Shown here: positions 19,489 through 19,820 of the stretch, piece after piece
Numbering within the stretch: position 1 is the first letter of the stretch
Layout of the letters: every line of letters begins with the position of its first letter
Assembly: GCF_003668895.1 (NCBI RefSeq)
Contig: NZ_RAWN01000061.1
Location: 1-48,830 of the forward strand
Length of the DNA: 48,830 nucleotides
Source: Corallococcus sp. AB045
GTDB taxonomy: Bacteria > Myxococcota > Myxococcia > Myxococcales > Myxococcaceae
Direction of reading: 5' to 3'
Translations under genes and position numbers: made by a program
The notes under the pieces: generated by a model
Database searches by the model: none
Told to the model about the DNA's origin: nothing
What the model saw: only the letters and a program-made list of their open reading frames with translations

Positions 19489-19820
19489 GAGGGGGAGGGG
19501 GCCCTGCCGGCTGCGGCCGCGGGAAACCTGTCCGACAGTCGGACAGGTTTGAGGAGCTTCGTCCCCGGAGGTGGCTGCCAGCCTGAAACTCCTCGACTTG
19601 GGGTGAGGGGGCCCTGCCGGTTGCGGCCTCGGGAAACCTGTCCGACAGTCGGACAGGTTTGAGGAGCTTCGTCCCCGGAGGTGGCTGCCAGCCTGAAGCT
19701 CCTCGACTTGGGGTGAGGGGGCCCTGCCGGTTGCGGCCTCGGGAAACCTGTCCGACAGTCGGACAGGTTTGAGGAGCTTCGTCCCCGGAGGTGGCTGCCA
19801 GCCTGAAGCTCCCCGACTTC
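19489..19820. repeat. Tandem direct repeat, 3 x 110 bp. Each unit contains a perfect 27-bp palindrome AAACCTGTCCGAC-A-GTCGGACAGGTTT and a second inverted repeat GAGGAGCTTC...(24 nt)...GAAGCTCCTC.
   Basis: Units start near 19491, 19601 and 19711. The palindromes sit at 19524, 19634 and 19744, so the period is exactly 110. There are only a few SNPs between units and no unique spacers. The array lies in the convergent intergenic gap between the plus operon (stop 19447) and the minus operon (stop 19879). Confidence 0.9.

Follow-up and report, generated by a model that had tools for sequence, protein, structure and literature searches.

Most of what is known of repetitive extragenic palindromic (REP) repeats comes from Gammaproteobacteria, in which they are partnered by the RAYT transposase; in E. 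coli they are enriched in the gaps between convergent genes. Dispersed repeats can also carry sites for a host protein: IHF sites are found in the BIME-1/RIP elements of E. coli, which belong to the bacterial interspersed mosaic elements (BIMEs), and in the Correia elements of Neisseria. Here we describe a palindrome of the genus Corallococcus that resembles both a REP repeat and a regulator's operator. It was found in Corallococcus sp. AB045, in a stretch of 48,830 nt of contig NZ_RAWN01000061.1 (assembly GCF_003668895.1) that we analysed as a whole and call the window; there it occurs once in each of three 110-bp tandem units between two converging operons. Described REP super-families carry a GTAG or CGTC tag (PMC3733652). 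The sites of GntR-family regulators follow the consensus NyGTNxACNy, and most of those of the FadR subfamily have 3 nt between GT and AC and TKGT/ACMA boxes (PMC4494728); the FadR site of E. coli fadL is AGCTGGTCCGACCTATA (PMC4259882). A reading of the window made from its sequence alone (hereafter the sequence-only reading) did not recognise the repeat as a described element. As far as tested this stands, for our literature search returned no match to the sequence, no account of REPs in myxobacteria and nothing relevant on GntR proteins of Corallococcus. We think that the array is probably a recent triplication of an orphan copy of a dispersed palindrome, an operator-like REP element without a dedicated role at this junction.

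The array occupies positions 19491-19819 of the window, whose G+C content is 70.4%, and Tandem Repeats Finder gives it a period of 110, 3.0 copies, 97% matches, zero indels and a score of 623. The sequence-only reading had described three near-identical units, each with a perfect 27-bp palindrome, in the place where two operons converge, and all of this was borne out. The units differ from one another at 4 (unit 1 vs 2), 2 (unit 2 vs 3) and 6 positions, and the palindrome is exact at all three places. It had 0 matches in 100 dinucleotide shuffles, none being expected by chance, and no further copy was found in the 48.8-kb window with up to 3 mismatches allowed. Gene ends were taken from a frame-specific analysis of G+C content at third codon positions (GC3) and from lists of open reading frames (ORFs), and the NCBI gene calls on RAVX01000011.1 (GCA_003611605.1, Corallococcus) agree with them. 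The convergent genes, of 73 and 504 amino acids, end at 19447 (+) and 19879 (-), and the 431-nt gap that separates them is filled by the array. The palindrome contains no stop codon in any frame, which is why a spurious ORF of 566 aa spans the array and why ORFs that read through such arrays need caution in annotation.

The palindrome is not confined to this locus. Species-representative genomes were scanned with the core CCTGTCCGAC-N-GTCGGACAGG, and the matches listed, from about a dozen genomes, comprise at least 162 exact cores across at least 120 blocks of 8 kb; the family statistics given below refer to this sample. Among the matches listed, nearly all blocks are from Corallococcus (C. 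exercitus, C. coralloides, C. interemptor, C. carmarthensis, C. praedator, C. terminator, C. llansteffanensis and C. sicarius), and a few are from Hyalangium, Archangium or metagenome-assembled genomes of Myxococcaceae. At least 38 of them lie on the C. exercitus SDU142 chromosome, spread over 0.9-9.0 Mb. The palindrome was absent from viral contigs, and the sequence of the window gap from the plasmid and phage collections. When the 110-nt unit was compared with all blocks by blastn, only its positions ~31-61, i.e. the palindrome, were recovered. Hence, the palindrome is the dispersed element, and the 110-bp unit is private to the window locus. The suggestion in the sequence-only reading of a REP/MITE-like intergenic element is therefore supported for the 27-bp palindrome and not supported for the unit around it, which is a local amplification.

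The dispersed palindrome is 25-27 bp long and reads AA(A)CCTGTCCGAC-N-GTCGGACAGGTT(T). In a consensus built from 157 copies, the stretch AACCTGTCCGAC-[A/T]-GTCGGACAGGTT is invariant; the third A/T at each end is present in ~65-70% of them, the central base is A or T at a ratio of 88:68, and the flanks beyond the AAA/TTT ends are GC-rich and variable. What the window unit has in common with the other family loci is the palindrome together with ~40-60 bp of weakly conserved flank. Copies were assigned to genes and gaps with our own crude GC3-based gene finder, the calls of which closely match those of NCBI on the window. Although 83.5% of the sequence is coding, 122 of the 134 classifiable copies (91%) are intergenic. 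With the regulator-linked loci described below removed, the remaining, orphan copies lie in 26 convergent, 34 co-directional and 11 divergent gaps, compared with 87, 276 and 98 such gaps that are free of the palindrome, so that they are enriched in convergent gaps (odds ratio 2.5, Fisher p=0.0016). The median length of a convergent gap is 273 nt with the palindrome and 25 nt without it. The family thus has the short, high-copy dispersed palindrome, the extragenic location and the preference for gene 3' ends that characterise REP/BIME repeats.

Tandem arrays containing the palindrome number 32 in the 120 blocks, with periods of 68-213 bp and up to 11.4 copies. Their periods are 68-73 (the commonest), 84, 92 (11.4 copies), 101, 118, 125, 137-150 and 201-213 bp, and the 110 bp of the window adds another to this series. 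Many arrays with a period of ~70 nt have in common a linker of ~43 nt, which can lie in either orientation. The largest array that we saw (block L034, 725-1770, C. coralloides KYC2213) has 11.4 units of 92 bp, and its palindrome has a CCGG variant of the left arm. These data establish the palindrome core as a genus-wide dispersed, extragenic and array-forming repeat.

Exact copies also lie in frame inside genes of nonribosomal peptide synthetases (NRPS) with normal GC3 (blocks L091 ~3861, L093 ~7367 and L085 ~3267). Two of them precede the adenylation-domain motif LAYVIYTSGSTG, in a loop, and are translated as KPVRQSDRF and EPVRLSDRL. The third is in a condensation domain, where it is translated as PVRLSDRF and seems to replace native residues rather than to add to them.

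All genes of the 120 blocks were compared all-against-all to find recurrent neighbours, and the sole family specifically tied to the palindrome is a GntR winged-helix protein (PF00392, E 1e-10 to 1e-14), which NCBI names 'FadR/GntR family transcriptional regulator' and which has weak full-length similarity to FadR and NanR. The other recurrent neighbours belong to ordinary large myxobacterial families (histidine kinases, ABC transporters, Ser/Thr kinases, NRPS/ligases, SDR, LysR and ADH). According to tblastn, the regulator gene is present in 23 of the 120 palindrome-selected blocks, and in 23 of 23 the palindrome lies upstream, at 60-183 nt from the called start in most and at up to ~490 nt in the others, with diverged or additional copies in between. 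Two more paralogues, picked by protein homology alone in C. coralloides DSM 2259 and Corallococcus sp. AB050B, have four upstream copies each, in units of ~135-140 nt, which makes 25 of the 25 paralogues examined. AB050B lacks the element at the gap orthologous to that of the window, yet has these four copies upstream of its regulator paralogue. The regulator family comprises 287 clusters at E<=1e-10, and the best 120 of the 287 are all from Corallococcus; at least 12 are on the C. exercitus SDU142 chromosome. A metagenome scan for the family gave generic winged-helix matches only, and a viral scan gave no match.

Since the genes around the regulator vary from locus to locus, regulator and leader form a stand-alone cassette of ~1.2-1.7 kb. 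A Corallococcus genome has at least 12 diverged copies of the cassette, which lie at unrelated places on the chromosome, and the tail of its gene is long, disordered and repeat-containing. Its leader is conserved over ~300 nt, of which ~170 nt are upstream of the palindrome, and contains an invariant box, CGTCCATGTCAGACCCC, which lies ~50 nt ahead of the start and includes a third GTC-N-GAC motif (GTC-A-GAC). A promoter scan of the leader gave no sigma-70-type match. The palindrome is still perfect in leaders that have diverged by ~25%. The protein consists of ~235 conserved residues followed by a variable tail, and its recognition helix and wing do not vary between paralogues with identities of 48-80%. 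FadR (1HW1/1E2X) aligns to it over residues 9-207. Its AlphaFold model has a confident winged helix-turn-helix, a seven-helix domain and a disordered tail, and the top Foldseek hits of this model in the PDB are all of the FadR subfamily, with E. coli FadR first. As modelled, the protein therefore has the architecture of that subfamily, an N-terminal winged helix-turn-helix (PF00392) and an all-helical C-terminal domain. In most regulator ORFs the tail contains a second, usually decayed palindrome ~1015-1120 nt past the start, which is translated as (G)NLSDCRTG(W) (for example, in blocks L068 ~6590, L090 ~5715 and L100 ~1578; protein alignment columns ~450-470). The regulator gene is thus bracketed by two palindromes.

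Orphan copies, including the units of the window, are 75-80% identical to the leader over about -56 to +36 relative to the palindrome centre, and hence they are fragments of it. In the window, positions 19480-19550 match the cassette leader of block L070 with 76% identity over 71 nt, and units 2 and 3 match it with 78% over 55 nt (blastn). The sequence comparisons thus show the palindrome to be an invariant component of the leader in an expanded family of FadR/GntR genes, and the orphan copies to derive from this leader. They would then be operator-bearing leader fragments that have spread and are decaying.

One alternative is that the palindrome is a selfish REP/MITE-type repeat, dispersed by a RAYT or some other enzyme that has escaped notice. 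It would have no cognate regulator, its link to the regulator genes would be hitch-hiking from an ancestral insertion, and the array would be an amplified insertion. Near-identical extragenic copies, the 3'-end bias, the arrays and the presence/absence polymorphism at the orthologous gap (see below) all fit such a repeat, as do the in-frame copies in NRPS genes and in the tails of regulator ORFs, which would mean insertion or tolerance wherever no stop codon arises. However, searches of the 960 kb around the 162 copies and of the window gave no RAYT, either with the YI..NPVK motif or with phmmer (E. coli RayT from NC_000913.3 against six-frame ORFs), and the all-against-all clustering revealed no other recurrent transposase family in the 120 blocks. 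Neither a GTAG nor a CGTC end tag is conserved in the 157-copy consensus. There are no REPIN-type inverted doublets, the neighbouring copies being direct repeats 68-213 bp apart, and no terminal inverted repeats of the MITE kind beyond the central palindrome. Around 58 solitary copies, direct repeats of fixed length or spacing, as expected of a target-site duplication, were in no excess over displaced controls. Furthermore, pure hitch-hiking predicts neither a perfect palindrome in leaders diverged by ~25% nor leader-derived flanks around orphan copies. We therefore consider a selfish origin unlikely.

The association with a regulator leader bears on another proposal of the sequence-only reading, an array of operator sites for a dimeric regulator. 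The palindrome can be read as CTGTC-C-GACAG overlapping CTGTC-G-GACAG, i.e. as two inverted GT-N3-AC (GTC-N-GAC) boxes, and has the dyad symmetry and the 3 nt between GT and AC of the FadR-subfamily motif. The position of such an operator, in the promoter region of the regulator's own gene, is that of the palindrome in the family (25/25), though not at the window locus. The variant arm AACTGGTCCGAC, found in C. exercitus and C. aberystwythensis, and the fadL site AGCTGGTCCGACCTATA have ten bases in common, CTGGTCCGAC. Among the arm positions of 147 decayed copies, G6, T7 and C8 vary least, and the greatest variation is at position 5 (T->G, the K of TKGT) and at position 9, the centre of the box. 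Changes are one-sided in 317 cases and two-sided in 26, with 28 expected if the arms were independent, and 18 of the 26 are complementary; decayed copies within one array are not independent of each other. This profile, which can only be suggestive, fits a protein-recognition motif and shows little sign of selection for a hairpin. The leaders of the 25 paralogues and the GT-N3-AC signature thus lend the operator proposal indirect support, and on balance we lean towards the palindrome being an operator that is bound by dimers of these winged-helix regulators.

Several points weigh against this interpretation. The operator assignment rests on position, symmetry and the signature of the family. 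All 120 blocks were chosen by an exact match to the palindrome, and the unbiased sample of paralogues is two. Sites of transcription factors are usually degenerate; more than 160 copies identical over 21-25 bp would more commonly be expected of a mobile repeat or of one that evolves in concert. With their centres only 8 bp apart, the two GT-N3-AC boxes could hardly both be filled by two FadR-type dimers. There is no regulator paralogue in the window, so that any effect there would have to be in trans. The dispersal of the palindrome is not explained by a transposase, a consistent target-site duplication or a RAYT, as none was found in the sequences searched, and the statistics on its location come from a crude gene finder.

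A bolder form of the operator interpretation is that regulator and palindrome are a co-amplifying pair: a FadR-type family with at least 12 paralogues per genome and a palindrome-encoding disordered tail, and its own 25-bp operator, which would have escaped to at least 100 intergenic sites and arrays. Such a pair would make up a REP-like system in which the partner is a transcription factor and not a RAYT. We put it forward tentatively, and regard it as rather doubtful. If it is true, the orphan arrays could serve as decoy or titration sites, as recombination landing pads for cassettes or as wiring points of a large regulon.

The origin of the array itself is best seen from the gap between the 504-aa gene and the 73-aa ORF, which we compared in six other Corallococcus genomes (Table 1). 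Depending on the species, it contains 0, 1, 2 or 3 copies of the palindrome. The single unit of C. exiguus is ~106 bp long and has the 9-bp sequence AGGGGGCCC at both ends (gap positions 49 and 155). As the same sequence marks every junction in the window, the number of copies would have grown from one to three by slippage or unequal crossing-over at an ancestral unit of this kind. The three units are 95-98% identical, which we read as recent triplication. Taken together, the sequence comparisons show a recent, lineage-specific tandem triplication of one unit, in which the one-unit state of C. exiguus would be ancestral. Between the window and C. exiguus, the palindrome differs at 0 of 27 positions and the rest of the gap at 36 of 185 (19.5%; p~0.003); the palindrome is therefore either constrained or homogenised. 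The variant palindrome of C. exercitus and C. aberystwythensis is altered in both arms in a complementary manner, and the flank CGAAGCGCCTCAA is retained. The junction is a hotspot of insertion and deletion, since C. interemptor and C. macrosporus have an extra gene in place of the palindrome element. Under our preferred reading, the array, as a triplicated orphan copy, would serve no dedicated function in the two operons. Its incidental effects would probably be three strong predicted protein-binding sites 110 bp apart and three stable hairpins near the 3' end of whichever transcript enters the gap.

The sequence-only reading had considered a bidirectional terminator or insulator, and a dedicated terminator, or a stabiliser of RNA 3' ends, selected between the converging operons would account for the exact position of the array between two convergent gene ends and for the 2.5-fold enrichment of orphan copies in convergent gaps, a preference also of the REPs of E. 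coli. Each palindrome can fold, on either strand, into a hairpin of 12 bp with -18 to -19 kcal/mol, and the RNA hairpin of copy 1 (-19 kcal/mol) has a z of -4.45. However, the array hairpins are not followed by the U-tract that an intrinsic terminator would have, for the three T after them are part of the stem, and a scan with the terminator consensus found no site at the repeats. In the sister species the junction is a 2-nt gap, contains one copy or has another gene inserted, and elsewhere the family is also present in divergent and co-directional gaps and upstream of genes. The strong excess of one-sided over two-sided changes in decayed copies is a further argument against a role that depends on pairing. 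This proposal has thus been weakened, and we consider it improbable. The sequence-only reading had also reported a second inverted repeat, GAGGAGCTTC/GAAGCTCCTC, with a 24-nt spacer in each unit. It is perfect in unit 2 only (arms 19661-19670 / 19695-19704) and has one mismatch each in units 1 and 3. We rejected it as a conserved functional hairpin, since it is imperfect in two of the three units, is paired at 7 of 10 positions in the C. exiguus orthologue and was not found in the rest of the family.

Folding of single units, which are somewhat more stable than their shuffles (z -2.6 to -2.9), brings in a last alternative, namely that the units are small structured RNAs or a CRISPR-like array that is processed at the palindromes; the 68-73-bp-period arrays elsewhere do superficially resemble repeat-spacer arrays. 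The 83-nt stretches between the palindromes of the window are, however, 95-97% identical to one another, and in the arrays elsewhere linkers are shared both within and between arrays. On these grounds a CRISPR array was rejected, in agreement with the sequence-only reading. A family of structured small RNAs, which that reading had entertained, finds no support either: decaying copies lose pairing freely, the unit outside the palindrome is not conserved between loci, and no promoter-like sites were found. The whole window had no match in Rfam at gathering thresholds, and the array region and the regulator leader, searched at E<=1, gave only plant miRNA precursors and 'Rhizobiales-2', none near threshold. 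We hold either form of this alternative to be very improbable. The 'Rhizobiales-2' matches (RF01723, 26-28 bits vs a gathering score of 40) are at 19635-19726 (-) of the window and at 3562-3645 (-) of block L045, and probably reflect a shared hairpin shape only. A scan for tRNA and tmRNA found none.

The window contains some further features. The operon on the + strand (~11900-17300) includes a Phage_base_V/gp5-like (VgrG-type) gene, and that on the - strand (22715-33240) encodes an AAA+ ATPase and a protein of 2713 aa with hits to Annexin. These genes would fit a contractile-injection or secretion-type system, to which the converging operons may belong. At 17290-18501 (+), a Pro/Arg-rich ORF of 403 aa with a weak GC3 signal and no Pfam hit is a possible gene. 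Its ATG overlaps the stop of a 720-aa gene, and it fills the 1.2 kb without NCBI annotation between this gene and a 243-aa gene. Two other tandem repeats of the window, at 2871-3042 (75-bp x 2.3) and 24600-24727 (69-bp x 1.9), are inside giant genes of ~2500-2700 aa and are probably repeats at the level of the protein.

Table 1. Features of the window array, regulator cassettes in the family blocks, and the orthologous gap in other Corallococcus genomes. Coordinates are those of the window unless a block is named.
Feature	Location or size	Strand	Basis or remark
Tandem unit 1 (110 bp)	19491..19600		Tandem Repeats Finder and repeat search; 4 differences vs unit 2
Tandem unit 2 (110 bp)	19601..19710		Tandem Repeats Finder and repeat search
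Tandem unit 3 (110 bp)	19711..19820		Tandem Repeats Finder and repeat search; 2 differences vs unit 2
Palindrome copy 1, AAACCTGTCCGAC-A-GTCGGACAGGTTT, 27 nt, two inverted GTC-N-GAC boxes	19524..19550		Exact match
Palindrome copy 2	19634..19660		Exact match
Palindrome copy 3	19744..19770		Exact match
9-bp direct repeat AGGGGGCCC at unit boundaries	19496..19504, recurring at 19606, 19716, 19823	+	Presumed duplication substrate
Final AGGGGGCCC copy, just beyond unit 3	19823..19831	+	Sequence comparison of units
Second inverted repeat, GAGGAGCTTC-24 nt-GAAGCTCCTC	19661..19704 (unit 2); homologous 19551-19594, 19771-19814		Repeat search
Stretch homologous to FadR/GntR paralogue leader, -56..+13 around palindrome centre, recurring per unit	19480..19550	+	blastn
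Last gene of + strand operon, 73-aa ORF	19226..19447	+	NCBI and GC3 gene calls; no Pfam hit
Last gene of - strand operon, 504 aa	19879..21393	-	NCBI and GC3 gene calls; FGE-sulfatase/HEAT
Regulator cassette	block L045 3370-4923; also L002, L013, L016, L036, L042, L053, L055, L056, L068
Regulator cassette, further blocks	L070, L073, L079, L087, L090, L097, L100, L103, L210, L211
C. exiguus orthologous gap	209 nt		Full-length alignment to window flanks plus exactly one unit
C. exercitus orthologous gap			One copy, variant palindrome CAACTGGTCCGAC-N-GTCGGACCAGTTG
C. aberystwythensis orthologous gap			Two copies, same variant palindrome as C. exercitus (CAACTGGTCCGAC-N-GTCGGACCAGTTG)
Corallococcus sp. 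AB050B orthologous gap	2 nt		Element absent
C. interemptor orthologous gap	extra gene at 4805-6388 of sequence L125		Different extra gene (527 aa), no palindrome
C. macrosporus orthologous gap	extra gene at 4644-5579 of sequence L129		Different extra gene (311 aa), no palindrome

If the paralogues do bind the palindrome, Corallococcus would be a natural example in which a regulator has multiplied together with its operator and has seeded sites throughout the genome, which would be relevant to the growth of regulatory networks in bacteria and to the purpose of REP-like sequences. That the arrays vary in copy number is also of practical concern, as a source of assembly breaks and as a potential marker for strain typing.

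In comparison with FadR-type systems, the palindrome has the same dyad-symmetric GT-N3-AC core as the operators of the subfamily, it lies in a conserved leader upstream of the regulator's own gene (at ~90-140 bp in most), and the protein associated with it has the FadR fold with an invariant recognition helix. However, it is 25-27 bp long and contains two overlapping boxes, whereas the FadR site is a single one of 17 bp. Unlike FadR operators, it is found in identical form hundreds of times, for the most part far away from a regulated promoter and often at the 3' ends of genes, and its arrays reach 11 copies.

The likeness to REP/BIME repeats is in the short GC-rich palindrome with many near-identical copies, the arrays with semi-conserved linkers, the presence and copy number that vary between related genomes, and the stable hairpins that transcripts could form. 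Unlike a REP, the Corallococcus palindrome is a perfect dyad without intrinsic orientation. In BIMEs, Y and Z REPs alternate. The Corallococcus arrays are head-to-tail direct repeats of palindrome and linker, and alternation cannot be defined for a palindrome that is perfectly symmetric apart from its central base. The gene that recurs next to it is a FadR/GntR regulator, where REP systems have the RAYT transposase, and just as RAYT genes are bracketed by REPs, this regulator gene is bracketed by palindromes. The repeats with IHF sites are similar in that a dispersed repeat takes a protein-binding site into many intergenic regions, but the presumed binder here is a lineage-specific, multi-copy regulator family with 'master' copies of the site at its own genes, and not a single housekeeping nucleoid protein. 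Our literature search found no REP-like repeat described with such 'master' copies in the leaders of an expanded transcription-factor family. In summary, the Corallococcus palindrome is best filed as a variant of the REP/BIME kind, in which a family of transcription factors is the apparent partner in the place that RAYT takes in other REP families.

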